From assembly GCA_963712235.1 (NCBI GenBank), contig CAVQHC010000017.1, positions 42,754-106,753 on the forward strand: 64,000 nt of DNA. The letters are read 5' to 3'. The translations under genes and the position numbers were made by a program. The notes below the pieces were generated by a model, which saw only the letters and a list, made by a program, of their open reading frames with translations, did not search any database and was not told the origin of the DNA. This DNA comes from an uncultured delta proteobacterium. Lineage in GTDB: Bacteria; Myxococcota_A; Polyangia; Polyangiales; Houyiibacteriaceae. This document shows positions 19,594 through 62,786 of this stretch, piece after piece. The stretch's first letter is position 1, and every line of letters starts with the position of its first letter.

Positions 19594-19640
19594 GCTTTGG
19601 GAGCGCACTCTGGCGTGGATCGGGGAGAACTGACGCCGTC

Positions 19641-19689
19641 ACTGGCACTGGCACTGGCGCTGGCACTGGCACTGGCACTGGCGCTGACC
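19641..19689. repeat. (CTGGCR)n hexanucleotide array, left flank of copy A
   Basis: actggcactggcactggcgctggcactggcactggcactggcgctgacc read directly. Confidence 0.9.
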
Positions 19690-19693: not shown

Positions 19694-19884
19694 GGGGCTC
19701 GGAAAAAGGCGCGACACGGGGCTGCGCCGAACGGCTCGGCTTGCATTTGTGTTCGGAAGCACTTGGGAGCTTTGACCACGCAAGCCTCGCGTCGGCGCGC
19801 GCGCCAATCTGCGGTGGTTGCTGTCTTGCAGATTGGCACTTGCGACGTCGACTCCGCCCCATATCGCGCCTTTTTCCGGGCCCC
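19694..19884 (+). repeat. 191-bp foldback element, copy A
   Basis: GGGGCTCGGAAAAAGGCGCGA...TCGCGCCTTTTTCCGGGCCCC terminal inverted repeat. Internal hairpin GCCAATCTGC-N15-GCAGATTGGC. I count 3 differences from copy C. Confidence 0.85.
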
Positions 19885-20146
19885 TCCACACATCGACATT
19901 CATGGCGAAGAGCGGGGCGTAAGGATGCTCTCGCGATGTCCTCGACATGGTTCGACATGTATGGCGGGAGTACGTTACGAGATCTGCAAAACCTCGAGGC
20001 GCCGGCTCTAGCGGCCGGAGAGTCTCCAGGACATCGCGCAGATTTCAGGAGCGCGTGGGGTCCCCAGAAGGGCGCCAGCCCGGCCCCACTCACACGCAAA
20101 AAGGAGATCACGATGACCGAGTAGAGTCACAGGCGCACGTCACACC

Positions 20147-20197
20147 GGCACTGGCACTGGCACTGGCGCTGACGCTGGCGCTGGCGCTGACGCTGGC
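20147..20197. repeat. (CTGGCR/CTGACG)n hexanucleotide array, right flank of copy A, followed by (GGC)n
   Basis: ggcactggcactggcactggcgctgacgctggcgctggcgctgacgctggc, then gggcggcggcggcggcggtgaatcc. Confidence 0.9.
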
Positions 20198-20295
20198 GGG
20201 CGGCGGCGGCGGCGGTGAATCCGGTCACGTTCGCTCACCTAAGTACCCGAAGTCCTTGGCCCACCCCCTGGCACGCCTCGTGCTCTCCCCCCTGC

Positions 20296-24360: not shown

Positions 24361-24445
24361 GGAGAGCTGTCCGAGTGGTCGAAGGTGCGTGATTCGAAAT
24401 CACGTGTACCGAGAGGTACCAAGGGTTCGAATCCCTTGCTCTCCG
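24361..24445 (+). tRNA. tRNA-Ser (anticodon CGA)
   Basis: Acceptor GGAGAGC/GCTCTCC. Anticodon arm CGTGA-TTCGAAA-TCACG. Long variable arm. T-loop GGTTCGAATCC. No encoded CCA. Confidence 0.9.
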
Positions 24446-24533
24446 CTACGTTCTTTGACCTACAAGTTGACGACCGCAGAGGCCCCTGCCCAAAAAGCAG
24501 AGGCTGAAGCGAACAGGAAGGCGGACTCCGCCA

Positions 24534-24618
24534 GGAGAGGTGACCGAGTGGTCGAAGGTGCACGACTGGAAATCGTGTGTACCGTAAGGTACCGGGGGTT
24601 CGAATCCCTTCCTCTCCG
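24534..24618 (+). tRNA. tRNA-Ser (anticodon GGA)
   Basis: Acceptor GGAGAGG/CCTCTCC. Anticodon arm CACGA-CTGGAAA-TCGTG. Long variable arm. GGTTCGAATCC T-loop. Confidence 0.9.
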
Positions 24619-24638
24619 CCGATCGGCGCTCCCGCCCA

Positions 24639-24736
<98 letters not shown>

Positions 24737-24783
24737 TTTTTACGCTATAATGGAGGAAGCGGGGCAAGGCGACGTACTTAGCG

Positions 24784-25590
24784 ATGGACCGAATCATGCG
24801 TCATTCGATTCCCATCTTCTTGCTCACCATGGTCCTCGGGCCGGCGGATGCCCTCGCGCAACCGCCTTCGACTCAGCCGAGAGACCAGCCGTCGTCGATC
24901 GTCGTCATCGACTCGCCGCCGCAAGCGCCTCCGCCGCAGCAGCCTTCCACGGGCGTCATTCTCCGCCGGCCGGGGACGGGTCGCGTCATGCTGACGGGAA
25001 CCCCCGTACGCACGCACTTCCAATCGCCAACCGACGGCGTCTCGTTCCAACTTCGAACCGGCGGCAGCTACACCTCGGTCAGCGGCGTCAGCTTCGGCAT
25101 GGGGTACGGCATGGGGTACGGCTGGGGTGGCCCCGGCTGGGGCTGGGGCGGCTACGGCGTCGGCTACGGCGTCGCACCCTATTACGGAGAGGTGGTCACC
25201 AAGGCCTATCAACCGATCTGCGAAGCGCCCTGCGATGCGACCCTGCTCTCGGGCAGGCATCGTTTCGCGCTCTCGCTCAACGGCGGAAGGCCCCTCGACG
25301 TCGCGCAGCCCGTCGACCTCAGCGTCGAGTCGGTCATCGAAGGCCGCTACGTCGACAAGAGCCACCTGCGCAGAGCCGGCTGGATCACCTTCGTCGCAGG
25401 CTCCATCGCCGGCATGGCGCTCATGTTCTCCTCGATCGACTACCGCGCCGACCCCTACTTCGGCGATCAAATCCGCTACGGCGGCATGTTCTACACAGGC
25501 GTCGGCCTCTTCGTCAGCTCGATCATCACCGGCGCCGTCCTCGCCGCCCAAGGCGACGAAGCCAGCGTCACGGTCTACCCCGTAGAGTAG
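24784..25590 (+). CDS. Hypothetical secreted/membrane protein with Gly/Tyr/Trp-rich segment
   Basis: Signal-like IPIFLLTMVLGPADALA. GMGYGMGYGWGGPGWGWGGYGVGYG. Two C-terminal hydrophobic helices. The alternative ATG at 24796 is equally possible. Confidence 0.55.
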   Translation: MDRIMRHSIPIFLLTMVLGPADALAQPPSTQPRDQPSSIVVIDSPPQAPPPQQPSTGVILRRPGTGRVMLTGTPVRTHFQSPTDGVSFQLRTGGSYTSVSGVSFGMGYGMGYGWGGPGWGWGGYGVGYGVAPYYGEVVTKAYQPICEAPCDATLLSGRHRFALSLNGGRPLDVAQPVDLSVESVIEGRYVDKSHLRRAGWITFVAGSIAGMALMFSSIDYRADPYFGDQIRYGGMFYTGVGLFVSSIITGAVLAAQGDEASVTVYPVE

Positions 25591-25619
25591 GGGGGGTGTA
25601 GCCACGTAGCGGACTCAGG

Positions 25620-25693
25620 AGGACTCGAACCTCCAACCCCCGGCTCCGTAGGCCGGTGCTCTATCCAATTGAGCTATGAGTCCCCGGAGCGCG
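25620..25693 (-). tRNA. tRNA-Arg (anticodon ACG)
   Basis: Reverse complement gives GGACTCA..GCTCAATTGGATAGAGC..CCGGC-CTACGGA-GCCGG..GGAGGTTCGAGTCCTCC-TGAGTCC-G, 74 nt. Confidence 0.9.
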
Positions 25694-25745
25694 CACGGTA
25701 GCGGCCCCGTTTGGAGCGTCAAGCGCCCCAACTTGCGGAGAGGAA

Positions 25746-25835
25746 GGGATTCGAACCCCCGGTACGGCTCTACACCGCACGGCCGCTTAGCAAGCGGCTG
25801 CCTTCGACCACTCGGCCACCTCTCCAAGAAGCAAA
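25746..25835 (-). tRNA. tRNA-Ser (anticodon GCU)
   Basis: Reverse complement gives GGAGAGGTGGCCGAGTGGTCGAAGG..GCCGC-TTGCTAA-GCGGC, a long variable arm, and GGTTCGAATCCCTTCCTCTCCG. Confidence 0.9.
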
Positions 25836-25951
25836 GATTTCAATGCCCGGCACGGCGAACGCTGCGCGCGGGCGGCCTATGTAGCCGCCCCCCAAAGCAG
25901 TGTCAAAGGCCCCCTCGGAGCGCGGGTCCGGGCCGTGCTACAAAGGCCGTC

Positions 25952-26518
25952 ATGCGTTGGCTCTTGGTGTTCTTGATCGGTCTTGCGAGCTTCACCCAAA
26001 CCAGCGAGGCCCGAGCCTGCTCCTGCATGAAGCTCACCCCTTCCGAAGGCCTCACTTCTTCGTACGCGGTCTTCACCGGCGAGGTCACCAACATCGAGCC
26101 GAACACCGCGACCAGGTTCGGTGGGGTCGAAATCACGCTGCGGGTGAAGAAGGTTTGGAAAGGCGACATCGGCGCGCAAGTCCAGGTCCGCACCGCCGGC
26201 AGCAGCGCGGCCTGCGGCTACAGCTTCGTGAAAGGCGAAACGTACCTGGTCTACGCTGACCGGGACGAAGCCGACCCGATGCGAGTGAGCCTCTGCAGCC
26301 GGACCGCGCTCATCGCCAACGCCCAAGAGGACCTCGACTTTCTCGGGAAGCCCACAAAGGAGCTCAAGGACGCGAGCGCGCGCGAAAAGAGCAAAGATGG
26401 CAAAGCCCGCAGAAGAGACAACTGCAGCGCATCCCCCGGCCCCGCCGGCCGCGCCGGTCTCGGCTGGGTCGTGCTCTTCCTCGCTGGCGCAACGCTCACG
26501 CTGCGACGCTTCTCCTAA
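25952..26518 (+). CDS. TIMP/netrin-module-like secreted protein with MYXO-CTERM-type anchor
   Basis: Signal MRWLLVFLIGLASFTQTSEARA, then a predicted mature N-terminus CSC. Later Cys residues lie in AACGYSF and VSLCSRT. C-terminal CSASPGPAGRAGLGWVVLFLAGATLTLRR. Confidence 0.65.
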   Translation: MRWLLVFLIGLASFTQTSEARACSCMKLTPSEGLTSSYAVFTGEVTNIEPNTATRFGGVEITLRVKKVWKGDIGAQVQVRTAGSSAACGYSFVKGETYLVYADRDEADPMRVSLCSRTALIANAQEDLDFLGKPTKELKDASAREKSKDGKARRRDNCSASPGPAGRAGLGWVVLFLAGATLTLRRFS

Positions 26519-26539
26519 CTCACCCCGAACGGACCCCTC

Positions 26540-27652
26540 TTGCGCCTGACCGCCCCCGCCTTGCTGCTGCTCGCCTGTGCGTCGTTGTTCGCGTCACTCA
26601 CCGGCTGCAGCACGACTCCAGCAAAGCCGTCGCTCATGGCGAACATGGCGCAGCAAGACGTGACGGTCCCGCAGCTGCGCGCCCTCGACTACGAGTACGC
26701 GGCCCGCTTCGGGCAGCTCGTATCAACGACCGTCTTGGACATCGTCGAAGCGAGCGACAAGCTCGAGGTCTTCGATCGCGCGTACCAGTGGCAGATGTGG
26801 GCCGCGGCACAGGCGCGCGGCGCCTCGTTCGACCGGGACCCTTTCGCCGGAATGCTGGAGCTCTGGACGCTCGCGGGGCAGCAGCGCAAGCACTTCACCG
26901 AAGGTGGGGGCAAAGACGCGTTTGCCGGCCAGCAGGCCATCGCCGTCCAGACCACCGAGCGGCTGGAGCGCGACATCCGAGAAATCGCCTCGTCGGTGAT
27001 GGAACCCGAAGCGTTCGAAGATCTCAGCGCGAAGGTCGACGCGTGGGTCGACAGGAATCCGATCGAGGGCCGGCTTTTCATGCGGCCCACGGCGCGCGCA
27101 GACCTGGCCGCGTTGGTCCCCGCCGAGAAGCAGGGCGGCCTCAAGGCGGTCGGCAGCATCGAGGACCAATTTCGCGACCTCAACGATCGGCTCGGGATCC
27201 TCACGACGCAGCTGCCCTCCGAGGCGCGCTGGCAAGTCGAATATGTAACAAACGCGCTGTTCGAGGAACGACTCGAGGCGCCCATCGACGAGCTGGTCGT
27301 CACCATGGAGAACATCAACGGCTTCCTCGACGAGCTCGATGGGATGGTGGACGGACAGGTCTCGACGCTTCTTGGGGCGGTCGAGAGGGAGCGGCTTGCG
27401 GTGTTCGAAGCCATCGCCGAGGAGCGCGCCATGGTTCTCGGGGCCATCGAGCAAGAGCGCGTTTCGGTGATGGATGAGCTCGACTCGCAGTTGCTCACGG
27501 CCACCGCCAAGCTCAACGACGTCGGGAAGGGCCTGATCGACCACTTCTTCGTTCGACTCATCGAAGTTCTCGCCGTGGTGGGCGTGGCAACGATTCTGAC
27601 GGTCCTGCTCGTGCTGGTCGTCCTTCGGAAACGCCGCAGCAGCGACGATTGA
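26540..27652 (+). CDS. Hypothetical lipoprotein with C-terminal TM helix
   Basis: TTG start. LLLLACASLFASLTGC lipobox. C-terminal VLAVVGVATILTVLLVLVVLRKRR. Confidence 0.55.
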   Translation: MRLTAPALLLLACASLFASLTGCSTTPAKPSLMANMAQQDVTVPQLRALDYEYAARFGQLVSTTVLDIVEASDKLEVFDRAYQWQMWAAAQARGASFDRDPFAGMLELWTLAGQQRKHFTEGGGKDAFAGQQAIAVQTTERLERDIREIASSVMEPEAFEDLSAKVDAWVDRNPIEGRLFMRPTARADLAALVPAEKQGGLKAVGSIEDQFRDLNDRLGILTTQLPSEARWQVEYVTNALFEERLEAPIDELVVTMENINGFLDELDGMVDGQVSTLLGAVERERLAVFEAIAEERAMVLGAIEQERVSVMDELDSQLLTATAKLNDVGKGLIDHFFVRLIEVLAVVGVATILTVLLVLVVLRKRRSSDD

Positions 27653-27683
27653 CCCTGCGCCGCGAAACGAATATGTCCGTCTA

Positions 27684-28529
27684 ATGGATGTGGTTTCGTT
27701 CCGAGAGACGGCCGAGCGGTACTCCGTCATTTTTCTCGATGCCTACGGCGTTTTGAAGAGCTCGAGCGGGCTCATCGACGGCGCCTTGGAGGTGGTCACG
27801 TCTTTGATCGACGCGGGCAAAGAGGTCTTCGTCGTCACCAACGATTCGTCCCGATCGCCCGAATCGATGGCCGAGCGGTACTCGCAGCAGGCCGGACGCG
27901 AGCTCTTGCCGGCCGACCGCTACATCTCTTCGGGGCTCTTGGCGGCCGAATACCTCGAGAACCAGATTCCATACGGCAAGGTCGCCTACCTCGGGAAGCC
28001 CGAGTCCGCGCACTACATCGAAATCGCCGGCAAGATTCCGATTCCGATTGCGGACTGCACCTCCAGCAACAACATCGTCGCGATCGTGCTGCTCGACGAT
28101 GAGGGCTTCGACTGGTTCCGAGACGTGAACGCCACGCTCAATTTGATTCGTCACACCAACGTGCCGGTCATCGTCGCCAACAACGACATCACGTACCCGA
28201 TGAAGGGCAATGAAATCGCCATCGCGGTCGGCAGCCTAGGCGACCTGCTCTCGCAAATCACCGAAAAGACCTTCGTCCGTTTCGGCAAACCCGACTCGAT
28301 GATGTTCGCCTACGCACTGGCCCGCGCCCGCAAAGAGCTCCCCAACATCACCAAACGCGACGTCCTCTTCGTCGGCGACACGCTGCGCACCGACATCATT
28401 GGCGCGAACACGTATGGATTCGACAGCACCCTGGTTCTCTCGGGAAACACGCTGCCCGAAACCGCCGACCTGATGATCCGATCCTCGGGGATCATTCCGA
28501 CTTACGTGAGCGAGTCGATCGCGACGTAA
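27684..28529 (+). CDS. HAD-superfamily hydrolase, subfamily IIA
   Basis: VIFLDAYGVL (DxxG nucleophile motif), VVTNDSS, FVGDTLRTDIIGA. Confidence 0.8.
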   Translation: MDVVSFRETAERYSVIFLDAYGVLKSSSGLIDGALEVVTSLIDAGKEVFVVTNDSSRSPESMAERYSQQAGRELLPADRYISSGLLAAEYLENQIPYGKVAYLGKPESAHYIEIAGKIPIPIADCTSSNNIVAIVLLDDEGFDWFRDVNATLNLIRHTNVPVIVANNDITYPMKGNEIAIAVGSLGDLLSQITEKTFVRFGKPDSMMFAYALARARKELPNITKRDVLFVGDTLRTDIIGANTYGFDSTLVLSGNTLPETADLMIRSSGIIPTYVSESIAT

Positions 28530-28533
28530 GATC

Positions 28534-29045
28534 GGGGCGCGGAAAAACCCGTCACGGGGTTCCATCGAACGGCTCGGCGCCAAGCGGCTTGTGCTGCCGC
28601 GGATGTTTGGGGGTCGGGTCTTGGGTGGGTTGGCTGGTACGGTTTGGTTGAACCGCCCCGCCCACCCCCACCCGTAATCCTCCCTGGCGCGGCATTCGCT
28701 TCGCTCTGCCTTGCCGGCGCATTCGCGCCGGGCTTCGCCCTGCGGGCTCGCGCTTCCGCCTGCCGTGGGGGAGCCGGGTTCCGCCTGCCGTATGGGCGCC
28801 GGGTTCGCCCTGTCTCCATATGAAGGGGCGCGCTTGAAGATCTATCCGTATGGAGGGGCGCGGAAAAAAACCCGTCATGGGGTGGAGTCGACGTAACGAG
28901 TGACAATCTGCAAGACAGCAACCACCCCAGATTGGCGCGAGTTCCGAGGCGAGGCTTGCGTGGCCTAAGGCCCCAAGCCCCTCCGGCCACCTCTGCAAGC
29001 CGAGCCGTTCGATGGAACCCCGTGACGGGTTTTTTTCCGCGCCCC
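28534..29045. mobile_element. 512-bp foldback (MITE-like) element with about 45-bp terminal inverted repeats
   Basis: GGGGCGCGGAAAAACCCGTCACGGGGTTCCATCGAACGGCTCGGC at 28534..28578 is the reverse complement of 29002..29045, apart from A5 versus T7. Sits between two convergent genes. Confidence 0.8.
28855..29045 (-). repeat. 191-bp foldback element, copy B (inverted orientation, divergent)
   Basis: Same length and internal landmarks as copies A and C (GGCTTGC/GCAAGCC stem, CAATCTG..GGTGGTTGCTGTCTT..CAGATTG hairpin). Terminal stem GGGGCGCGGAAAAAAACCCGTCA / TGACGGGTTTTTTTCCGCGCCCC. Confidence 0.8.
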
Positions 29046-29055
29046 GGTGGTCCGT

Positions 29056-30099
29056 CTACAACACTTCAAGCAACGGCGTAAAATCCGCGAGCTCTAGCTG
29101 CGGCAAGTAGTCGTGGATCGCTTCCTGCTGTAGCCGGTGGCAGATGTCGGGGCGGAAGAAGTGCTCTCCGACCCGGAGCACGTAGTTCAGGATGAAGAAG
29201 CGGTAGGACTCTTTGAGGAAGAGGAGCTCTTCTTTCGTGAGGCGGTGCACTTCGTGGTAGGCGCGCAAAAACTTCATGAAGCGCTCGTCGAAGAGCGGGT
29301 CGACCGTGTAGCTGAAGGCGGTCTGGTCGCCTTCGGCGCGGACGACGCGGGCGCAGAAATAGAGGTCCAGCATCCGGGGCTCGATGCGGAACCAGTCGTA
29401 GTCCCAGCGGGAAAAGAACTTGAAGCCATCGCCGTCCATCCCGACCGAGAAGTTCCCGAGGTTCCAGTCGATCAGGACCGGGATCTTGGTCCACTGGTGG
29501 TAGCCGAGGTCGTCGGCGTTCCCGAGAAAGGCATCGCAGTGGGCGCGAACGTAGCTGATCGACGAGTCCGAAAAGCCCCGCTCACGGCGCCACTCCGAGC
29601 TGCCGATCGCGTCGTGAAGGCTCGCGACATCGGCGCCGAGCGACTGCCAGGTCGGCCTCACGCGGTCCGAGATGTTCAAGCACTCTCGATGAAAGAGCCC
29701 CATCTCCTCGCCGAGCGATTCGATCTGCCCGTCCGTCAGGACCTTGGGGAGGAAGTCATAGAAGGGTTGCTGCGCGTAGAAGACAACCCACTCGTCGTCG
29801 TCGCGGTAGGTGAAGACCTCGTCGTTCTTCAAAAGCACCGGCGCAAGAAACTTCGCGTACCGAGTCCCGCGAAGCCGATGAATCCATTCGTGGATCCGGT
29901 AATGATCCTGTCGAAAATGCACGTAAGAGCCGTAGCTCGAGCGTTTCGCCACCACGGCGTGCCCGTCGTCGAGGATGAGCAGATACACCGAGTTGGTCGA
30001 AACGTTAGCGCTGACCTCGCGCATCTCGACCAGTTCCCGATGATCCCCGTAGGCATCCCAGGCTGCAGTCACGATGAGTGGGACAGCGGGCTCGGTCAC
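29056..30099 (-). CDS. Phosphotransferase (APH/choline-kinase-like, protein-kinase fold) family protein
   Basis: VYLLILDDGHAVVAKR (ATP-binding Lys region) and VLIDWNLGNF (DxD-type metal site). Start set at GTG 30099, just downstream of the aldolase stop. Confidence 0.55.
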   Translation of the reverse strand: MTEPAVPLIVTAAWDAYGDHRELVEMREVSANVSTNSVYLLILDDGHAVVAKRSSYGSYVHFRQDHYRIHEWIHRLRGTRYAKFLAPVLLKNDEVFTYRDDDEWVVFYAQQPFYDFLPKVLTDGQIESLGEEMGLFHRECLNISDRVRPTWQSLGADVASLHDAIGSSEWRRERGFSDSSISYVRAHCDAFLGNADDLGYHQWTKIPVLIDWNLGNFSVGMDGDGFKFFSRWDYDWFRIEPRMLDLYFCARVVRAEGDQTAFSYTVDPLFDERFMKFLRAYHEVHRLTKEELLFLKESYRFFILNYVLRVGEHFFRPDICHRLQQEAIHDYLPQLELADFTPLLEVL

Positions 30100-30116
30100 G
30101 CTTGAGCTTGGCGTCC

Positions 30117-31028
30117 TTAGGCCTGCGCGGCGTAGAGATCCATGATGTCGTGAAGAAGCTTGACGGCGTCCTTGTTGGATCGCTGAAAGGCGTTGCGGCC
30201 GACGATCGAACCGTAGCCACCGCCCTTGGCGATTTCCCCGACCTCTTCGAGAACGGCGTCGGTGCCCTTGGTGGCGCCGCCGGAGAAGATGACGATGCGC
30301 TTGCCGCCAAACGCAGCCTGCACGACGTGCCGGACGCGCTCGGCCAGTGTTCCGATGGGGATGTTCTCGTAGCTCTTCTTCGCAGCGTCCTGGAAGACCA
30401 CTTCGGAGGGCGCCTTCACCTTCACGACGTGCGCGCCGAGCTGGCAAGCGATCTGCGCGGCGTAGGCCGCGACGTCGATGGCGGTCTCCCCCTCCTTGGA
30501 CATGTTGCCACGCGGGTACGACCAAACGATGCTTGGCAAGCCGGCGGCGCGCGCCTCGCTGATGAGGTCGCGAAGGTCTTGGTACATCTGATTGCGAAGG
30601 CCGCTGCCTGGGTAGATGGTGTACCCGATCGCCGAACAGCCGAGCCGAACGGCGTCATCGACCGCGGAGGTGAGCGCCGAGCACGGCGTGTCGGGCCCAC
30701 CGAGCGAATCGCTGTTGTTTACCTTCAAGATGAGCGGAAGCTCACCGGCATAGCGATGCGCGATCGACTCGATGAAGCCGAGGGGCGCCGCGTAGCCATT
30801 GCAGCCAGCCTCGACGGCGAGCGCGGGGTGGTAGGCCGGGTCGTAGCCCGGAGGGTTCGGCGCGAAGGAGCGGGCCGGCCCATGCTCGAAGCCCTGGTCG
30901 ACCGGGAGGATCACGATTTTACCCGTTCCAGCGAGGCGCCCGGTGTTCATCAGTCGCCTGAGATTTCCAATGACGCCAGGATTTTCACCCGCGTAATTCG
31001 CGAGGATTTGTTCGACTCGTTCACTCAT
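30117..31028 (-). CDS. Class I fructose-bisphosphate aldolase family (DhnA/DeoC-LacD type)
   Basis: GKIVILPVDQGFEHGP, PLILKVNNSDSL and HVVKVKAP (Schiff-base Lys region). 303 aa. Confidence 0.7.
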   Translation of the reverse strand: MSERVEQILANYAGENPGVIGNLRRLMNTGRLAGTGKIVILPVDQGFEHGPARSFAPNPPGYDPAYHPALAVEAGCNGYAAPLGFIESIAHRYAGELPLILKVNNSDSLGGPDTPCSALTSAVDDAVRLGCSAIGYTIYPGSGLRNQMYQDLRDLISEARAAGLPSIVWSYPRGNMSKEGETAIDVAAYAAQIACQLGAHVVKVKAPSEVVFQDAAKKSYENIPIGTLAERVRHVVQAAFGGKRIVIFSGGATKGTDAVLEEVGEIAKGGGYGSIVGRNAFQRSNKDAVKLLHDIMDLYAAQA

Positions 31029-31138
31029 GCCCGTTGCCTCCGTTGTTCAGCTTCTTGGCGGGGACCTTAGCTCAGAGATCGGAGCTGGTCATGCCCAAGT
31101 GGGGGACCCTTAGGGGCAGGCCCTACGCCAGGCGAGAC

Positions 31139-32968
31139 TCAGGCGCGCGCCGCCTGGGTAGCCGCTGTCCCTTCGGCGTAAAACGCAGCGATTTCAGACG
31201 CGTACTTCTCGTTCACGATGTTCCGCTTCACCTTGAGGGTCGGGGTCAGCTCGCCTCCGTCCACGCTAAACACGGTCGGGAGAATCTTGATCTTCTTAAT
31301 CGTCTGGTAGCGCGCGACCTTCTCGTTGCAGACCTTTTGCATTTCTTGCTCGATGTAGCGCTTCACGTCCTCGTTTCGGGCGGCGGTCTGGACGTCGCTC
31401 AGGCCGGAAATCTGGGATGCGACCTCCAGCTCCGGGAGAGCCTCCGGGTCGAGCACGATCAGCGCCGCGAGATAGGGCTGCCGATCACCCACCACCACGG
31501 CCTGCCCCACGCCCGGGATCGACTGCAGGTAGCCCTCCATCTCGGCGGGCGCGACGTTCTTCCCGCCCGCCGTGATGATCAGGTCCTTTTTGCGTCCGGT
31601 AATCGAGATGTAGCCGTCCTCGTCGATGGCGCCGAGGTCGCCGGTGTGCATCCAGCCATCGCTGTCGTAGAGCTCGGCCGTCTTGTCGGGCAGGCGGTGG
31701 TAGCCCTTCACCATGTTGATGCCCTTGAGCATGATCTCGCCGTCCTCGGCGATCTTCGCCTGAACGCCCGGCAAGGGCCTGCCGATGGTGCCCAGCTTCG
31801 GCCTGCCGTGCGGCTGGACGGAAGCAAAGGCCGTGGTCTCGGTCATTCCGTAGCCCTCGTGAACCGGAAGGCCGATCGACGCGAAGAACTCGAGCGTCGA
31901 AACCGAAATCGGTGCAGCGCCACTGAGCGCGACCTGCAGCTGGTCCAAGCCGAGGGCCTCCTTGATCTTCGAGATCACGAGCTTGTTCGCTAGATTGCGC
32001 GAAAAGCTCGACACCGGACGGCCGGTCGCGACCTCCTGCTTGAACGCCTCGAGCTCGGTCTTCCGAGCCCAACTCGCCAGCTTGGCCTTGATGCCGGTCG
32101 CTTCGGCCAATTTGCCGCGAAGCGCCGCCTCGAACTTCTCCCAAACCCGCGGCACCGCCAGGAAAATCGTGGGGTGCACATCGACCAGGTAGTCTTTGAT
32201 CTGCGTGAGGTCGCTGCAGTAGAAGGTCTCGCCCTGAATCATGAGCCCGGCAAAGTTTGTCATTCCCTGCTCTGCCGCGTGGCAGAGCGGCAAGTAGCTG
32301 ACGCTGCGGGTCTTCGTTTGCATGAGCGAAGGGAACACTTCCGCCACGGCATTGGCGATGAGGTCGATTCCCTCGTGCGTCAGCATCGCCCCCTTGGGAA
32401 GCCCGGTCGTACCGGAGGTGTAAATCAGGAGCGCGACGTCATCGCTCTTCACGGCATCGAGCCGCGCCTCGAGCTCCGCATCGCTGATCGAATCGCCTTT
32501 CGCCATGAGAGCTTTCAGGCTGATCACGCGAGGATCGCTCGACGCGAGGTCATCCATCGTGACGATATGCTCGACCGGACTGTCGCCCGTGGCGATCGAT
32601 AAGAACTTATTAAGCTGCGTCTGGTCGTCGCAAATCACGATCTTCGATTCCGCATTGCTGACGATGTAGGCCATCTGCTCCGGCAAGAGCGTCGTGTAGA
32701 GAGGCGCCGGGACCCCCTGGGCCGCGTTGATGCCGTGCTGGCAAATCACCCAGTCGCGCCGATTGGCGCCAACGATGGCCACGCACTCCCCGGGCTGCAG
32801 GCCCAAAGCGATGAGCCCCTTCCCCACTTGTCGCACGCTCTTCCAGTACTCGGCCCAGGTCGAAGTCGCCCAGGTCCCATCGGAGTTGCGGTCGTGAATG
32901 GCGGGCTGGTTGCCGTTGGCCTTCGCCCAGCCTTCGATCCGCGAGAGCATCGTTCCTTGCAGTGTCAT
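31139..32968 (-). CDS. Long-chain fatty-acid--CoA ligase (AMP-forming)
   Basis: IYTSGTTGLPKGAMLTH AMP-binding motif, GYGMTET, ITGRKKDLIITAGGKNVAP, ELTPTLKVKR. Confidence 0.88.
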   Translation of the reverse strand: MTLQGTMLSRIEGWAKANGNQPAIHDRNSDGTWATSTWAEYWKSVRQVGKGLIALGLQPGECVAIVGANRRDWVICQHGINAAQGVPAPLYTTLLPEQMAYIVSNAESKIVICDDQTQLNKFLSIATGDSPVEHIVTMDDLASSDPRVISLKALMAKGDSISDAELEARLDAVKSDDVALLIYTSGTTGLPKGAMLTHEGIDLIANAVAEVFPSLMQTKTRSVSYLPLCHAAEQGMTNFAGLMIQGETFYCSDLTQIKDYLVDVHPTIFLAVPRVWEKFEAALRGKLAEATGIKAKLASWARKTELEAFKQEVATGRPVSSFSRNLANKLVISKIKEALGLDQLQVALSGAAPISVSTLEFFASIGLPVHEGYGMTETTAFASVQPHGRPKLGTIGRPLPGVQAKIAEDGEIMLKGINMVKGYHRLPDKTAELYDSDGWMHTGDLGAIDEDGYISITGRKKDLIITAGGKNVAPAEMEGYLQSIPGVGQAVVVGDRQPYLAALIVLDPEALPELEVASQISGLSDVQTAARNEDVKRYIEQEMQKVCNEKVARYQTIKKIKILPTVFSVDGGELTPTLKVKRNIVNEKYASEIAAFYAEGTAATQAARA

Positions 32969-33028
32969 TTGGCCTCCATGGAGAGGGGGTGACGCTACCC
33001 CATCTCAAGCTCCGATCCTAGGCATGAT

Positions 33029-33120
33029 CGCTGGCACTGGCACTGGCACTGGCACTGGCACTGGCTCTGGCGCTGGCGCTGGCACTGGCACTGGCGCTGG
33101 CGCTGGCGCTGGCGCTGGCA
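33029..33120. repeat. Solo (CTGGCR)n hexanucleotide array, about 15 units
   Basis: gctggcactggcactggcactggcactggcactggctctggcgctggcgctggcactggcactggcgctggcgctggcgctggcgctggca in an intergenic region, with no adjacent 191-bp element. Confidence 0.9.
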
Positions 33121-33391
33121 AAAACTGGCGGAGGAGGAGGAGTTCGCAAACTCTGCCTCTTGCCGCAAAGGCCAGAACAAAGGATTTCACGCGCTGGAGC
33201 CGCGCCGGCATGAGGATCGGCAGCCCCTTTTTGGCAGCTCTGGCGCTTTTGACATTGGCAGGACGGATCAGATCAGTAAGCCGGATGCCATCTCGGATTC
33301 CACTGGTCGGAACGCTCGGTAGACGCGCAGTAGCCTCGGTATGCGCCGCGCAAGAGTTGGCAAGAAAGGCGAGTACAGCGATAATGGCAGC

Positions 33392-35113
33392 ATGATACGT
33401 ACCAGTGTTGTCTGCATATCCGTCGTTTTCATTCTGGCTGCGTGCGGCTCAACGTCGGGAGGCGGAGCCGGAGTCGGAGGCTCAGCCGGAGTCGGAGGCT
33501 CAGCCGGAGTCGGAGGCTCAGCCGGAGTCGGAGGCTCAGCCGATTCGTGTGATATTAGCACCTGCGAATGCGAGGTCGATACGGATTGTGCCGAGTTCGA
33601 GGTTTGCGACACGACCTCGACACCTGGCCGACTCTGCACGTGCGCGCCCGCCTACGAGGACGCGGGCGGTGGCTGTTTCTTCGCCGGGGCGCCTAGCGAC
33701 CAGGGTTTCCAGGCTGCCGACGTGTGGAGCACGACCAACGACGTGCGGGCGGTCATCGATCCGAACGCCGCCGGCAGCATTGACACCGGCGTCGCGAGCC
33801 TGACGCCCGACGGTGTCTGTGTCTTTGACTCGATCTTCCAGAGGTTCACCATGCCGCCGCGGGATCGCTCCGAGATCTTTGCCGTTGACGTCAGCTACTT
33901 CGCCGAGACCACCGGCTTCGACTCGCTTGGGCCTGTGCTCCTGATCGATGGCGGCTGGAATACGCTCCCCCGGGAACAGGGCAGCTTCACCAACAACACA
34001 TTCTGTCTCGGCGAGCGTGGCTACGGCGGCGACGTCGAGTTCCGCATCGGCCCGGCCACCGAGAGCGACAGCTGCGTAGCCACGCCGGAGTCGTTTCTCC
34101 GATTTGATCGCGTCGCGGTCCGACGCGCCCTTGCCGGCGAGTGTCCGGATGACGTCGGCGAGACGATCAATGGCGACATGGAAGCCAACAACGGCTGGAC
34201 CTTCGCCTTTGCCAGCGGCGGCACCGCCGACTACGCCGACAACATCGGCGCCGGAAACAGCCGCGGTATCCGCATCACCCGCTCGACGACGGCCTCGAGC
34301 GCGTCGGCAACATCAAGAATCTCGCTGCCAATGGACACCTCGGTTCCCAGCAGCGCGATCGAGTTCTTCTCGGCTGGAACCGCGAGTGGGGTCTTCGAGG
34401 TCAGGCTCGGCGGCCAGCCAGTCTCGCGAATGACGCCGACCGGGGTGCGCCGTGTGTGCGTGCCCGAGTGGGCAAAGGGCACCGTGCAGGACATCACCTT
34501 CGCGCTCACCCAGGTCATGGGTTCCGGCGCTCCGATCAATCGTTCGGAGACCATCGACCTCGACGCGGTGTCGGTGGTGAGCGACACTGGTTGCGGCGCT
34601 GACGCCACCCTGTACGACAATGACTTCGAGACCTTCTTGAACACCCCCGGCCTCGCACCCGGCTGGGCGGTCACCATTGGCGGAGTCAATGGAACCGAAG
34701 CGCCGGCGACGATTCTCAATGACCCAAGCAGCGCGCACTCGGGCAACGGAAGCCTGCGTCTGACCGCGACCAACGTGTGCAACCGCGCGACCGCACGTCG
34801 CGACATCTTCGTCCCGGAGAGCAGCGGCGCCGCCGGTCCGGCGATCAAGGCGTTCGTCAACATCCCCAGCGCGCCGATCGGCCGGGGCGGGATCCGCTTC
34901 TACCGGACGCCGTTCCGCCCGGTCGAGGTCAACGCCCCTGAGGGCGTAGGCTACCAGCAGGTGATCATGTGCATTCCGCCCAAGCACATCGGCCGGCGGC
35001 TGACGATCGAGGCCTTCGCCGATGGCGGTGGCGGTAGTTGCACCGACATCGCCGGCGAGGACACTTTCGTCGACGATCTCGAGGTCACGACCGACCCGAC
35101 ATGCCCGAACTGA
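33392..35113 (+). CDS. Secreted lipoprotein with (GVGGSA)4 linker, Cys-rich module and CBM-like repeats
   Basis: MIRTSVVCISVVFILAACGS lipobox. GVGGSA x4. CDISTCECEVDTDC. Repeated NGDMEANNGW / NDFETF..GW segments resemble carbohydrate-binding-module starts. Confidence 0.6.
   Translation: MIRTSVVCISVVFILAACGSTSGGGAGVGGSAGVGGSAGVGGSAGVGGSADSCDISTCECEVDTDCAEFEVCDTTSTPGRLCTCAPAYEDAGGGCFFAGAPSDQGFQAADVWSTTNDVRAVIDPNAAGSIDTGVASLTPDGVCVFDSIFQRFTMPPRDRSEIFAVDVSYFAETTGFDSLGPVLLIDGGWNTLPREQGSFTNNTFCLGERGYGGDVEFRIGPATESDSCVATPESFLRFDRVAVRRALAGECPDDVGETINGDMEANNGWTFAFASGGTADYADNIGAGNSRGIRITRSTTASSASATSRISLPMDTSVPSSAIEFFSAGTASGVFEVRLGGQPVSRMTPTGVRRVCVPEWAKGTVQDITFALTQVMGSGAPINRSETIDLDAVSVVSDTGCGADATLYDNDFETFLNTPGLAPGWAVTIGGVNGTEAPATILNDPSSAHSGNGSLRLTATNVCNRATARRDIFVPESSGAAGPAIKAFVNIPSAPIGRGGIRFYRTPFRPVEVNAPEGVGYQQVIMCIPPKHIGRRLTIEAFADGGGGSCTDIAGEDTFVDDLEVTTDPTCPN
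33470..33541 (+). repeat. Perfect 18-bp tandem repeat x4 inside the lipoprotein gene
   Basis: GGAGTCGGAGGCTCAGCC repeated four times in frame (GVGGSA). Confidence 0.9.
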
Positions 35114-35279
35114 CCGGGTGTCAGTGCGCTTTCAGAAAAGCCGGTGCCTGAGGTTGGCGCACCAGCCCCTGCCCAATACGGGAGGGCGATTGACATGATC
35201 AACAAGTACCGACGAGCGGCCCGATGACTCGCGGACCTCGGACGCGAGGGACCTGAGACCTCAGAGAATACGGCCCAGA

Positions 35280-35370
<91 letters not shown>

Positions 35371-35487
35371 GTGGAGGGGCCGATTTAGCACATGGATCGC
35401 GCCCTGGCCCTTTTCATTTCTGACGATCTGGGCCTATATTAGCCGGCTCCCGGCCAATGGGCGGCCGACAACTGATGAGGTGACCCT

Positions 35488-37275
35488 GTGGCGACTGACA
35501 CGATTCCGAATCGACTTTTGCAACGTGCGAAAAGGACCCCGAACGACCCTGCGTACTACGTGCGGCAAGGCGGTAGCTGGAAGCCGACCAATTGGGGCAG
35601 CTACTCGGACGAGGTGACGCAGGCCGGCCGTGCGCTGATCGCGCTTGGCTTCGAACCCGGGCAGACAGTCTGCATCCTCGGCTTCAATCGCCCGGAGTGG
35701 GCGGTGATGGACATCGCTGCGATGGGTGCCGGCGGCGCCCCGGCAGGCATCTACACCACCTGCTCTCCGGTCGAGGTTCGCTACATCCTCTCGCACGCCG
35801 AAGCGCCCGTCATCCTCGTCGAGAACGAAGATCAATGGCGCAAGGTGTTGGCGGAACGCTCGAACATGCCGAACCTGAAGCACGTCATCACCATGAAAGG
35901 CTGTCCCGCGATCGCCGACGACATGGTGATGACCTGGGAAGAGTTCCTCGCCAAAGGCGATGGAGTCGAGACGCGGGCGTACCTCGACCGGGTCGAGAGC
36001 CTGAAGCCCAATGAGCTTGCCACCTTGATCTACACCTCGGGCACCACCGGCCCGCCCAAGGGCGTGATGCTGAGCAACGAGAACCTCGCCTGGACGTCGA
36101 ACGTGGCCATCAGCATCACGACGATCAGCGCGAGCGATTGCTCGCTTTCATATCTGCCGCTCTCGCACATCGCCGAGCAGATGTTTACGCTCCACATTCC
36201 AATCACCACGGGGGCCCGCGTGCACTTCGCCGAGTCGATCGAAGCGGTGCCCGAGAACCTGAAAGAGGTCCAGCCCACCATCTTCTTCGGCGTGCCGCGC
36301 ATTTGGGAGAAGTTCCATGCTGGGATCTCGGCCAAGCTCAAGGAAGCGACCGGCGTGAAGGCCAAGCTGGTAAAGTGGGCAATGAAGGTCGGCTGGGAGG
36401 CCAACCAGACCCCCGACGGCAATAAAGGCCTGCAGTATCAGCTCGCCAACAAGCTCATCTACTCGAAGCTCTTGCCCGCCATCGGGATGGGCAACGCCCG
36501 CGTGTGCGTCACCGGCGCCGCGCCAATCGCGCGCGAGGTGCTGGAGTTCTTCGCGAGCTTGAACCTCGTCGTTCTCGAGGTCTACGGCCAGTCCGAGGAC
36601 AGCGGCCCGACCAGCTTCAACACCCCGACCCGCTATCGTTTCGGCAGCGTCGGCCCTGCGCTTCCGGGCGTCGAGGTCAAGATCGCCGGAGACGACGAGA
36701 TCATGGTCAAGGGCCCCAACGTTTTCCTGGGCTACTACAGAGACAAGGAAGCCACCGACGCCACACTCTCCGACGGCTGGTTGCATTCGGGCGATTTGGG
36801 CGCCTTCGATAGCGACGGCTTCCTGAACATCACCGGCCGCAAAAAGGACATCATCATCACCGCCGGTGGCAAGAACATCACGCCGAAGAATCTCGAGTCG
36901 GGCATCAAGAACCACCCGCTCATCGATGAAGCGGTCGTGATCGGCGACCGGCGCAAGTACCTGAGCGCACTCGTCACCATCGACGTGGAGGCAGGCCCGG
37001 CCTGGGCCGCCGCCAATGGCGAAGATGCCGGCGCGCTTCACAAGAGCGCGAAGCTCAGGGCGAGCATCCAAGCGCACATCGACGAGATGAACAAGGAGTT
37101 CGCGCGCGTGGAGCAGATCAAGAAGTTCACCATTCTCAAGCGCAACTTCACCGTCGAAGACGGCGAGCTCACACCGACCCTGAAGGTGAAGCGCGCCAAG
37201 GTGAACGACCACTTCGCCGAAGACATCGAAGCGATGTACGACGAAGGCAGCGCGCAGCCTCAAGCTCGCGCCTGA
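35488..37275 (+). CDS. Long-chain fatty-acid--CoA ligase (AMP-forming)
   Basis: GTG start. IYTSGTTGPPKGVMLSN, VYGQSE, ITGRKKDIIITAGGKNITP, ELTPTLKVKR. Confidence 0.88.
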   Translation: MATDTIPNRLLQRAKRTPNDPAYYVRQGGSWKPTNWGSYSDEVTQAGRALIALGFEPGQTVCILGFNRPEWAVMDIAAMGAGGAPAGIYTTCSPVEVRYILSHAEAPVILVENEDQWRKVLAERSNMPNLKHVITMKGCPAIADDMVMTWEEFLAKGDGVETRAYLDRVESLKPNELATLIYTSGTTGPPKGVMLSNENLAWTSNVAISITTISASDCSLSYLPLSHIAEQMFTLHIPITTGARVHFAESIEAVPENLKEVQPTIFFGVPRIWEKFHAGISAKLKEATGVKAKLVKWAMKVGWEANQTPDGNKGLQYQLANKLIYSKLLPAIGMGNARVCVTGAAPIAREVLEFFASLNLVVLEVYGQSEDSGPTSFNTPTRYRFGSVGPALPGVEVKIAGDDEIMVKGPNVFLGYYRDKEATDATLSDGWLHSGDLGAFDSDGFLNITGRKKDIIITAGGKNITPKNLESGIKNHPLIDEAVVIGDRRKYLSALVTIDVEAGPAWAAANGEDAGALHKSAKLRASIQAHIDEMNKEFARVEQIKKFTILKRNFTVEDGELTPTLKVKRAKVNDHFAEDIEAMYDEGSAQPQARA

Positions 37276-37312
37276 GCCAGCCGATACGAGGCGATTCGGT
37301 CCCGGGCGGCGT

Positions 37313-37729
37313 TTAACCGACGACCGTCACGGTGACCCGTCGCCGATGCCCCCGGCGGCGGTGTTCCCAGAGAAAGACGCCCTGCCAGGTGCCAAGCGCG
37401 CAGTGGCCCCCGCTGACCGGGATGCCCAGTGAAGTCTGCGTAAGGGCCGTCTTGACGTGGGCGGGCATGTCGTCGGGGCCTTCCATGCTGTGGACGTAGA
37501 GCGAATCGCCGTCGGGAACGAGCCTCGAAAGGAAGGCGTCGAGGTCACGCTGCACGTCGGGGTCGGCGTTCTCGTTGATGATCAGCGACGCACTGGTGTG
37601 GTGCACGAAGACGGTGCAGAGGCCCTCGGAAACCCCAGACGCTGCGACCGCCTCCTGAACCTCTCGCGTGATTTCGCGGGTGCCCCTCCCCCGCGTTTCA
37701 ACCGTGAATGTGTGCGACTTGGCGGTCAT
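37313..37729 (-). CDS. YjbQ/UPF0047 family (secondary thiamine-phosphate synthase) protein
   Basis: MTAKSHTFTVETRGRGTREITREV...VHHTSASLIINENADPDV...MPAHVK...GTWQGVFLWEHR matches the family pattern. ATG overlaps the upstream stop (ATGA). Confidence 0.85.
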   Translation of the reverse strand: MTAKSHTFTVETRGRGTREITREVQEAVAASGVSEGLCTVFVHHTSASLIINENADPDVQRDLDAFLSRLVPDGDSLYVHSMEGPDDMPAHVKTALTQTSLGIPVSGGHCALGTWQGVFLWEHRRRGHRRRVTVTVVG

Positions 37730-38199
37730 GACGGCGACACCCTCATCCACATCGCCGCTTGGTCACCTTGGTAGATCAAGATGTCGTCCTGGGTGAAGCG
37801 GAACTCGTAGCGGCCAAACACCTGCGTTTCGCGCTGACGGATCTTCGTTGCGCGAAGCTCCATCTCGAGCGGCGAGCCCATCTTCGCCAGCGCTGCGAAT
37901 CGGGCATCGTAGATTCGGCCGCCGTAGCCAATCCAGCCATCGGCGTGGCGGAGCCCGAGGCAGTAATAGGTGTGCATGAAGCCGAGGATCCCGGTCAGGT
38001 GAACCATCAGGCCGCCGCTCACGTGCCGCGGATGACGCAGCGGGTGTGCCCGCTGGTCGCGCGTCAGCGGAAGATCGGGGCGCGTCGTCATTCGCGCCCG
38101 CACAAGCCCTGCCTCCTTATCGACTTCGACGAGCTCATCGATGCAGATCGCGCCTGGGCCGTAGGGGCAGTCCGCAACAAATTCAGGGTCCAACGGCAT
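37726..38199 (-). CDS. Hotdog-fold (FabA/FabZ/MaoC-like) protein
   Basis: 157-aa ORF. HPRHVSGGLMVHLTGILG resembles the dehydratase His-region of hotdog folds. Tightly packed between queE and yjbQ. Confidence 0.55.
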   Translation of the reverse strand: MPLDPEFVADCPYGPGAICIDELVEVDKEAGLVRARMTTRPDLPLTRDQRAHPLRHPRHVSGGLMVHLTGILGFMHTYYCLGLRHADGWIGYGGRIYDARFAALAKMGSPLEMELRATKIRQRETQVFGRYEFRFTQDDILIYQGDQAAMWMRVSPS

Positions 38200-38859: not shown

Positions 38860-40139
38860 CTCAAGCGTGGGTTGCGGGTGATCAGGATCAGCATCTGGCC
38901 CTCCTGTGCGGCACGTTCGGGCACCTCAACGATCAGATCCCACATTCCGGGCTTCGCATCCAGCGCCAGGGTCTGCGTGCGCCGGCGAACGCAGCGCTCC
39001 CCCCTTTCGTCGACGCGAACCCAAAGAACACGGTGCTTGTAGCCCGCGAGGTCGAGCGCAGAGGCGCGGAGGCGCGTGCGCTCCGTCAGCTCGACCCGGT
39101 GCCGGTAGAGGCGCGAGTTGGGTTTCAGAGAGCCGCAGTTTTTGGGGAGGGTTTCGGCGAGGGGGAGAGAGGGTTTGGTGGAGAGGGCGGAGAAGGGGAT
39201 GGGGATAGGGGTAGGGGTAGGGGTAGTGTCAGTGCCAGCGTCAGTGTCAGTGTCAGTGTCAGTGTCAGTGCCGGCGCCGGCGTCAGTGCCAGCGTCAGTG
39301 CCAGCGTCAGTGCCGGTGCCGGCGTCAGTGTCAGTGTCAGTGTCCCCAGCTCCCACTGCCTTCCTCAACGCATCCAACATCTGCAGCGTCAATAGGTTCC
39401 TCAAATTGTTTCCGTATTGGAGGCCCTTGTCCGTCAGCTGGCATGCGGCCTTGAGGCCGCCCTCGCCTAGGACGTTTGGATGGACGCCGTCTCGGGCTAG
39501 GCCTTTGCGGGGGAGCGCGCTCAGGGCCGCGTTGTAGTCGATGTACGGGAGCGACCAGTGCTTGGCGACGGCTTTGGTGATCGCGTTGAAGCGGCTGATC
39601 CAGCGATTCTTGTGCGTGTTTCTTCTTGGCAGCGCGGCGCCGAGGATGGGGACGACGCCCATCGCGGCGAGCTCTTCGACCAGGTACACCAGGCGCTTCG
39701 CATAGACCCGCTCGTTTTCGTTTTGCGCGTCGTTGCCGCCGAACAAGATCAGCGCCCAGCGTGCTTGGGTCTGCTCGATCTCGTGTCGGTAACTGGCCGG
39801 GCGGCCACCGAGGACGTAGCGAAGGTTCCAGCTCACCCCGGCGGCTTCGCTTTCCCGGTTAAACGAGTTGCGCCGGCCGGTGGCGAAGTAGTTCACGGTC
39901 TCGGCCAGATCCTGGTGCTCGCCAAGCTCTACGTACGAGGTCGCGAAGCAGTGCAGGAATGCTCTGCTGGCCACGCTGGAGCCGCCCATCTTCGAAAACG
40001 CATCGTCGCGCAGCTCCGGGTTGCGCGCATGGATCTGTCGAACGTGCGCGGTGACTTCGGCGCTGAGGGCCTCGGGTTCGGCTCGAGCGCTTCCGGCGAC
40101 GAGCAGCGTCACAAAGCAAGCAAGGGTCGCTGATTTCAT
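38856..40139 (-). CDS. SGNH/GDSL-family hydrolase with (T-D/A-G)n linker and C-terminal beta-rich domain
   Basis: Signal MKSATLACFVTLLVAGSARA. ILFGGNDAQ and DGVHPN SGNH blocks. Linker GDTDTDTDAGTGTDAGTDAGTDAGAGTDTDTDTDTDAGTDTTPTPTPIPIP. ATGA overlaps at both ends. Confidence 0.7.
   Translation of the reverse strand: MKSATLACFVTLLVAGSARAEPEALSAEVTAHVRQIHARNPELRDDAFSKMGGSSVASRAFLHCFATSYVELGEHQDLAETVNYFATGRRNSFNRESEAAGVSWNLRYVLGGRPASYRHEIEQTQARWALILFGGNDAQNENERVYAKRLVYLVEELAAMGVVPILGAALPRRNTHKNRWISRFNAITKAVAKHWSLPYIDYNAALSALPRKGLARDGVHPNVLGEGGLKAACQLTDKGLQYGNNLRNLLTLQMLDALRKAVGAGDTDTDTDAGTGTDAGTDAGTDAGAGTDTDTDTDTDAGTDTTPTPTPIPIPFSALSTKPSLPLAETLPKNCGSLKPNSRLYRHRVELTERTRLRASALDLAGYKHRVLWVRVDERGERCVRRRTQTLALDAKPGMWDLIVEVPERAAQEGQMLILITRNPRLR
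39227..39345. repeat. Hexanucleotide array (GTCAGT/GCCAGC type) used as a coding linker
   Basis: gtcagtgccagcgtcagtgtcagtgtcagtgtcagtgtcagtgccggcgccggcgtcagtgccagc... lies in frame within the SGNH hydrolase gene. Confidence 0.85.
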
Positions 40140-62736: not shown

Positions 62737-62786
62737 CACTGGCACTGGCACTGGCACTGGCACTGGCGGTGGCGCTGGCGCTGACC
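62737..62786. repeat. (CTGGCR)n hexanucleotide array, left flank of copy C
   Basis: cactggcactggcactggcactggcactggcggtggcgctggcgctgacc. Confidence 0.9.

Follow-up and report, generated by a model that had tools for sequence, protein, structure and literature searches.

Why do the two ends of a short DNA element change from copy to copy and still match each other? The question is raised by a 64,000-nt stretch of DNA from an uncultured delta proteobacterium of the order Polyangiales (contig CAVQHC010000017.1 of GenBank assembly GCA_963712235.1, positions 42,754 to 106,753), here called the window, which contains three full copies (A, B and C) of a 191-nt element. A preliminary description of the window had noticed that each change in one terminal arm of copy B was mirrored on the other arm. 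It had taken this for the covariation signature of a structure under selection, either RNA or a DNA cruciform or hairpin, or else for the trace of a mechanism that copies one arm from the other. As it had proposed, copies were collected, aligned on a common structure, scored for covariation and used to build a covariance model, and the covariation held. The observation was confirmed, and its interpretation was supported and could be made more precise. Rather than a lone RNA gene, the element proved to be an interspersed repeat of high copy number, and selection on its structure is supported by alignments of 48 and 107 copies, internal helices included.

Paired arms in three copies

Copy B lies at 28855-29045, with the + strand of the window as its folding strand (205 bits on + and 41 on - with the covariance model R1). 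Copies A (19694-19884; 183 bits on -, 45 on +) and C (62791-62981; 193 bits on -, 46 on +) fold on the - strand. The latter two are approximately 96% identical and lie within a 300-nt repeat. Copy B aligned with them only as reverse complement, at approximately 81% identity, and has exactly the same length, as had been reported. The closing arms of copy C are GGGGCTCGGAAAAAGGCGCGA/TCGCGCCTTTTTCCGAGCCCC and those of copy B are GGGGCGCGGAAAAAAACCCGTCA/TGACGGGTTTTTTTCCGCGCCCC. All the arm changes that had been described, namely CTC/GAG to CGC/GCG, A5/T5 to A7/T7 and GGCGCGA/TCGCGCC to CCCGTCA/TGACGGG, were recovered from the sequence. The arms quoted jointly for A and C are correct for copy C; the 3' arm of copy A reads CCGGGCCCC instead of CCGAGCCCC, with a single T opposite G. 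The inner GGCTTGC/GCAAGCC stem is kept and the self-complementary insert that it encloses is replaced (GTGGCC..GGCCAC), and the hairpin loop GGTGGTTGCTGTCTT is present in the window copies, both as claimed; copy C reads TGTTTT there.

On the consensus structure of the family, 12 of the 61 pairs differ between copies B and C. Standard pairs are retained in all eight pairs that changed on both sides. Among the four that changed on one side, three give G.U and the remaining one is a mismatch in copy C. All 61 consensus pairs are formed in copy B. Folding of the three copies was far more stable than that of dinucleotide shuffles (z = -7.2 to -10.2), none of 200 shuffles being as good. A partial copy, absent from the preliminary description, was found at 28534-28578 on the - strand. 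It consists of only the last 45 nt or so of the folding strand, starts 4 nt past the stop of a HAD gene (27684-28529) and is 91% complementary to the 3' end of copy B, the two forming an inverted repeat.

A covarying fold across the family

An exact-pattern scan of one genome per species returned 29 true loci, spread over nine genome bins with the labels Myxococcales, Polyangiaceae or Deltaproteobacteria; two further matches were due to chance. With a looser pattern, at least 120 loci were found in metagenome contigs of marine-sediment type. A profile search of related DNA gave 179 matches, 131 of them full length and 125 distinct, with pairwise identities among full copies of 63–99% (median 77%). 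The host range is a clade of uncultured Polyangiaceae-like Myxococcota. Many contigs end inside the element, as is typical where repeats break assemblies. A phage or plasmid origin was rejected, since neither viral contigs nor PLSDB plasmids contained a match. A coding function was also rejected: an open reading frame (ORF) crosses copies A and C, yet in most members of the family it is interrupted by a TGA codon (GAGTGAC) and is thus not conserved. The comparison with Rfam (release 15) matched no family at gathering score anywhere in the window. In E-value mode the B and C loci gave only noise, the best matches being a plant miRNA precursor (25 bits, cut-off 168) and BTH_s1 (17 bits, cut-off 74).

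A consensus structure was predicted with RNAalifold from 48 diverse copies, each less than 90% identical to the others. It comprises 61 pairs (-106 kcal/mol) in the helices P1 (27 pairs, 29 in copy B), P2 (5), P3 (13) and P4/P5 (16, with a variable tip). In copy B, the closing helix P1 of 29 bp is formed by its 5' strand (28855-28883) and its 3' strand (29017-29045), both on +. The P3 hairpin arm (28892-28946, +) has a CAATCTG/CAGATTG stem that closes the near-invariant loop CAAGACAGCAACCACC (28911-28927). The P4/P5 hairpin arm (28948-29006, +) is built of GGCTTGC/GCAAGCC, then GTGGCC/GGCCAC, and a variable tip.

Of all pair cells in the 48 copies, 97.3% held standard pairs, against 86.6% after shuffling; in a second alignment of 107 distinct copies fitted to the model the proportion was 98.0%. 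Both values are inflated to some degree, as the structure was predicted from the same sequences and the second alignment was fitted to the structure. The number of pairs with double changes, 35 of 61 in the 48 copies and 37 of 61 in the 107 copies against 6–18 in controls with slid partners, is not inflated by this circularity. Both sides had changed in 328 cells of the smaller alignment (98 expected) and in 772 cells of the larger one. None of 500 shuffles reached the observed values on any measure in either alignment. When the partner was slid by one to three columns, pairing fell to 39–46% (48 copies) and 37–45% (107 copies).

Double changes occurred in 21 of the 27 consensus pairs of P1. 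The internal helices P2–P5 covary too: P3 is 99% paired, and P4–P5 show swaps between GC and CG and between CG and UA. The preliminary description had stated that arm changes left uncompensated as often as loop changes would speak against a selected structure. The opposite was found, for P1 is among the most variable regions (diversity 0.32) and yet 96–97% paired. Diversity was 0.09–0.10 in the P3 and P4 stems and 0.15 in the P3 loop. The P1 arm sequences were distinct in all 48 diverse copies, and several arm types occurred within one genome bin. A pseudoknot between the P3 loop and a GGUGG near P1 was considered and rejected on reading the sequences, as the complementarity is not kept across subfamilies.

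Only one strand carries the pairing

Evaluated on the same alignment, the consensus energy was -89 kcal/mol for the folding strand and -35 kcal/mol for its complement. The departures from Watson–Crick pairing showed the same asymmetry. Of 304 such pair cells on the folding strand, 225 were G.U and 79 were mismatches; read on the complement, the same cells comprised 18 G.U and 286 mismatches (C.A in those read directly). G.U thus made up 7.7% of the pair cells, on one strand only and at recurring positions. Several pairs toggled between C-G, U-G and U-A or between A-U, G-U and G-C. One U.G pair in P3 was invariant in the 48-copy alignment and present in 103 of 105 copies of the larger one.

Because this polarity is strand-specific, it excludes a symmetric cruciform as the selected form and double-stranded ends bound by a transposase as the explanation of the match. 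It also argues against simple arm-copying, the alternative offered in the preliminary description, although rearrangements that form palindromes do occur in the family (see below). The polarity fits RNA, and it would fit a single-stranded DNA hairpin as well, since G.T is the mildest mismatch in DNA and the element folded equally well with DNA parameters. The strand-specific G.U covariation is compatible with a transcript of the folding strand but does not prove it.

Ends and genomic setting

The family unit consists of a 14-nt leader, the 191-nt body and a GGT trailer. The leader (consensus TGTCTACGTATGGA) directly precedes the initial GGGG, with an information content of 0.6–1.8 bits at positions -14 to -1 in 121 copies. 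The body ends in CCCC, followed by GGT, and conservation stops past it. In copy B, position profiles placed the leader TCTATCCGTATGGA at 28841-28854 (+) and the trailer at 29046-29048 (+). The stop codon of the convergent gene (29056-29058) lies 7 nt past the trailer. The leaders of copies A and C, read on the - strand, are TGTCGATGTGTGGA (19885-19898) and TGTCTATGTGTGGA (62982-62995). No target-site duplication was detected when direct repeats of 3, 4, 5, 6 and 8 bp were scanned for all boundary combinations in 115 copies. At most 6–11 of the 115 matched, all from one rearranged subtype.

Flanking genes were called by a crude gene finder that relies on GC content at third codon positions. They were convergent at 30 copies, divergent at 5, tandem and co-directional with the folding strand at 9, and tandem with both antisense to it at 13. 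An apparent bias in gene orientation (70 convergent against 27 co-directional downstream neighbours) merely reflects the preference for convergent regions, given the split of 9 against 13 in tandem contexts. Orientation relative to replication, judged by GC skew, showed no bias (30 against 39). Usually no more than approximately 15 nt separate the 3' end from the stop codon of a convergent gene. This proximity and an excess of TAG and TAA stops are most simply explained by whole composites that occupy short spacers between convergent genes; neither a fixed distance nor a target motif emerged.

Such a composite of about 510 nt is present at the B locus. It is made of the fragment at 28534-28578, a module of about 275 nt and copy B, has 45-bp inverted ends, and fills the entire spacer between the HAD gene (stop at 28529) and the convergent gene. 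The same composite was found at five unrelated loci (L007, L039, L049, L072 and L116). Part of its module (28640-28812, with a 25-nt tandem repeat at 28754-28812) is approximately 97% identical to its orthologue in the related contig L098 (4090-4330), the flanking genes being approximately 85% identical, and it recurs beside many elements elsewhere. The module probably represents a second family of repeats, subject to constraint or homogenisation.

A few recurrent modules were found upstream of the leader. One of them, present in about 12% of copies (e.g. L047:2300-2360, L050, L106 and L125), combines a small hairpin, CGTAGA..TCTACG, with a bidirectional terminator-like hairpin, AAAAAGGGGACAGTCCCCTTTTT, at about 23 nt from the leader. 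On reading the sequences across upstream module types, the leader motifs were out of register with a -10 box. A promoter and terminator scan of the C locus returned two short terminator sites inside the element, within the expectation from shuffles. The element as an intrinsic terminator was rejected: there is no terminator-like site at B, and the T run lies inside P1 in one subfamily only, the other having CACGGCGGAACGCG arms.

No transposase was found among the recurrent neighbours or inside the composites in approximately 1 Mb of flanks. The recurrent neighbour genes are ordinary paralogues or orthologues encoding kinase, OmpA, E2, ABC, SDR and EVE proteins. When E. coli RayT was compared by tblastn with the window and with about 1 Mb of loci that contain the element, only noise resulted; RAYT genes are single-copy and usually have their repeats on both sides.

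Exchange between copies

Contig L098 is syntenic with 24509-37863 of the window at approximately 85% identity and has the element at the site orthologous to B, within a longer, diverged form of the B composite. This copy is intact and fully paired, with a different arm type (AACAAGGCGCGATA vs AAAAAAACCCGTCA) and another P5. The swap of a whole arm type, with so many paired differences at this divergence, is better explained if another member of the family replaced or converted the copy than if compensation proceeded site by site. The element can also be absent: it is missing from contig L088, which is syntenic with the DNA on either side of copy C.

Three chimeric copies (L017:2-192, L063:11813-12003 and L103:3931-4120) have inner 5' and 3' arms of different subtypes and an unpaired inner P1, which indicates that copies exchange parts by recombination. 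In L024 (1-320), a perfect palindrome, composed of CATAGC/GCTATG and the initial 49 nt of another subtype, exactly encloses a full element, a rearrangement of the fold-back or template-switch type. Fragments keep the 3' end of the folding strand in 22 cases and the 5' end in three. This polarity was not counted as evidence for retroposition, because most fragments belong to three or four recurrent junction types and are probably inherited.

What is selected, and how the element may spread

We favour, with a probability of roughly 0.6, the reading that the element represents a new family of structured interspersed repeats resembling REPINs, ERIC and bcr1, in which the fold of one strand is selected and the folded molecule is RNA transcribed in convergent 3' regions. 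The data show the family with its fold, covariation, strand and genomic distribution, as well as absent and chimeric copies; the RNA is inferred. One strand folds into the closing helix P1 of 27–29 bp, the short P2 and the two arms P3, with its near-invariant 16-nt loop, and P4/P5. If selection acts on this single-stranded fold, P1 needs only to pair and could drift through G.U intermediates and compensating changes. The core loops, conserved in sequence, would presumably be read by a trans-acting factor. The folding strand would be the one read into RNA, in the 3' regions that separate convergent genes, and there the long helix may serve as a double-stranded processing module or a barrier at 3' ends around a protein-binding core. 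Copies may spread and homogenise as non-autonomous modules, through recombination or an enzyme acting in trans.

That the folded molecule is RNA appears somewhat more likely than that it is single-stranded DNA, given a large, branched fold, frequent G.U pairs with an invariant one among them, and no sign of a replication-strand bias. Several observations weigh against RNA transcribed in convergent 3' regions. Between tandem genes, the folding strand runs with both neighbours 9 times and antisense to both 13 times, so there is no sign of an orientation selected by transcription. A gene whose stop codon abuts the element would transcribe the non-folding strand. Scanning the B locus revealed no promoter of the sigma-70 type and no terminator. 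The bidirectional terminator-like hairpin found upstream of the leader in approximately 12% of the copies would block read-through into the folding strand. G.T is the mismatch best tolerated in DNA hairpins, and the element folds equally well with DNA parameters, so that a single-stranded DNA intermediate may exist instead. Finally, copies were collected by their conserved core and full length, so that decayed copies are under-sampled.

A tentative alternative is a mobile element of the REPIN type, whose hairpin arises in single-stranded DNA at replication or repair and is cut and pasted by an HUH enzyme (RAYT or IS200/IS605-type) that is single-copy, encoded elsewhere and in need of folded DNA. 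It would account for the strand specificity, the precise ends without target-site duplication and the conserved single-stranded 5' tail, and the putative transposition intermediate of REPINs has a similar 5' tail (PMC3116915). The high copy number, the extragenic position with preference for convergent regions, the presence/absence polymorphism and the nested or truncated copies would follow as well, and compensatory changes have been described for REPINs too (PMC3116915). Dependence on the lagging-strand template, however, would predict some bias in GC skew, and the counts of 30 and 39 show none, at low power. No RAYT homologue was detected in about 1 Mb of element-bearing loci, nor a transposase as recurrent neighbour. 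The branched fold of 61 pairs with conserved loops is far more elaborate than known HUH substrates, and its conserved parts are internal rather than terminal REP-like palindromes.

Less can be said for a bacterial retroelement akin to short interspersed nuclear elements, or an RNA-guided or RNA-templated module, that spreads via the folded RNA with an enzyme encoded elsewhere. We regard it as unlikely. The element would then be no passive repeat, nor a DNA transposon of the conventional sort. If true, it would unite the RNA-type strand-specific covariation with the precise 3' end and the conserved core. It would also explain the lack of target-site duplications and of a linked transposase, the variable-length upstream modules carried along, and the prevalence of folding-strand 3' ends among the fragments.

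That the copies are stand-alone small RNA genes, each equipped, along with its leader or upstream module, with its own promoter and producing an RNA of about 190 nt with paired ends like 6S or Y-like RNAs, seems improbable. Precise boundaries on both sides, a conserved leader directly upstream, conserved core loops and RNA-type covariation are what such genes would show. Neither the B nor the C locus has a promoter-like site, though, and the leader motifs are not in -10 register. A genome likely contains tens to hundreds of copies, chimeras and fragments included, and no Rfam family matches.

It is very improbable that the arms match without selection, through template switching at quasi-palindromes or through hairpin-directed repair or gene conversion, which would make the compensation mutational. 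The element nested in a palindrome built from its flank in L024, the three chimeras and the wholesale swap of arm type between copy B and its orthologue, a hint of exchange between copies, show that such processes may be at work. Arm-copying would nonetheless yield perfect Watson–Crick arms on both strands, not G.U pairs at recurring positions of one strand, and the short internal helices P2–P5 covary as well.

Least credible is a classical MITE (miniature inverted-repeat transposable element) of the DDE type, with inverted ends that match because they bind one transposase: the element is small and non-coding, has 29-bp terminal inverted repeats starting with GGGG and recurs within the composite with 45-bp inverted ends, but no tested boundary has a target-site duplication, a search of about 1 Mb of flanking DNA turned up no transposase with these ends, the G.U bias belongs to one strand, the internal helices covary, and ends that are the most variable part, with 48 of 48 arms distinct and several types per bin, do not suit a single sequence-specific transposase.

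Other features of the window

Copy C lies downstream of, and co-oriented with, a 108-aa gene at 63105-63431(-) of the 23S-rRNA-intervening-sequence or four-helix-bundle family (PF05635, the family of the Avd proteins of diversity-generating retroelements, DGRs). This gene is preceded by a GC-rich hairpin (63437-63510) with T and A runs alongside. At the A locus only a deleted remnant of such a gene is left (19885-20102), and in L088 (1400-1800) a diverged one occupies the same intergenic site in opposite orientation. Because of this remnant and the opposite orientation in L088, the four-helix-bundle genes look like independently inserted cassettes. A link with the element as a DGR-like unit was rejected: besides copy C, the gene adjoins an element only in L019 and L021 (tblastn).

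Arrays of 8–20 hexamer units (CACTGG, CGCTGG, CTGGCA and variants) are located at 19640-19686, 20147-20198, 33031-33120, 39225-39344, 62737-62783 and 63552-63620. At A and C they bracket a unit of element, four-helix-bundle gene or remnant, and hairpin. About 1 Mb of related loci contains 52 such arrays. They lie within 60 nt of only 8 of 125 copies, and a link between array and element was likewise rejected.

A cluster of stable RNA genes (24361-25825 and 35281-35370) contains the small RNA of the signal recognition particle (24650-24742) and five tRNAs, four for Ser (cga, gga, gct, tga) and one for Arg (acg). The inverted repeats 31548-32190 and 36257-36884, at 70–75% identity, are paralogous AMP-binding (acyl-CoA synthetase-like) genes on opposite strands and do not belong to the element. 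A long ORF, 29056-30525(-), had no Pfam match, and its third-codon-position GC content of 0.87 supports coding only in the 3' part (29056 to approximately 29700). By eye, this part appears to resemble phosphotransferase- or kinase-like enzymes, and the listed ORF probably begins well upstream of the true start.

Comparison with known systems

REPINs, the hairpin-forming REP doublets that accompany RAYT transposases in Pseudomonas and enterobacteria, are non-coding repeats that lie outside genes in high copy number. A long hairpin is predicted for them as single-stranded DNA or mRNA, and its two sides commonly carry compensatory changes (PMC3116915). Their putative mobile form has a single-stranded 5' tail, and they persist vertically and occur as fragments and clusters (PMC3116915). 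The element shares the compensated hairpin (97–98% paired, 35–37 pairs with double changes), the high copy number and the extragenic position. In REPINs, however, two terminal REP palindromes are conserved and the middle varies, whereas here the termini vary and a branched core is conserved; beyond GGGG/CCCC, the arms contain no conserved REP-like palindrome. The element is also about twice as long, with its 61 pairs distributed over five helices, and has no sequence similarity to REPINs.

The bcr1 repeats of the Bacillus cereus group, about 155 bp long, show compensation at the RNA level and are flanked by 5-bp direct repeats (PMC3184786). The present element has no such duplication, and the two come from different phyla without sequence relation. 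ERIC/IRU (127 bp) and Correia elements are small MITE-type repeats of enterobacteria and Neisseria (PMC3184786). Like the element, which has termini of 27–29 bp (45 bp in the composite), they are small intergenic repeats with inverted termini. ERIC and Correia elements are often co-transcribed with genes and fold into long RNA hairpins with effects at the RNA level. They have a TA target duplication and largely uniform termini, whereas the element lacks a duplication and combines variable, compensated termini with a branched, conserved core.

Integron attC sites lie just downstream of stop codons, conserve arm structure over sequence, and fold from one strand as single-stranded DNA. The element has neither R''/R' core sites (RYYYAAC/GTTRRRY) nor a cassette array or integrase, and its termini read GGGGC.../...GCCCC. 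Its copies lie 9–34 kb apart in both orientations among housekeeping genes, and its middle, which varies in attC, is conserved. REPINs, DDE-type MITEs, attC sites, intrinsic terminators and the known Rfam families thus each have at least one tested defining feature that the element does not share.

In size and quality of covariation, the element is typical of a curated structured RNA family such as those of Rfam 15. It represents a very well-supported family of structured elements from a poorly studied, uncultured branch of the Myxococcota, absent from Rfam and ready for curation. Its covariance model can flag the repeats that break metagenome assemblies of these organisms. REP, ERIC and REPIN sequences likewise raise the question whether selection on interspersed repeats of bacteria acts on RNA or on single-stranded DNA, and the family is a good system in which to ask it. 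Its pattern of constraint is the reverse of that in REPINs and MITEs: a closing helix free to vary surrounds an invariant core, with clear strand polarity.

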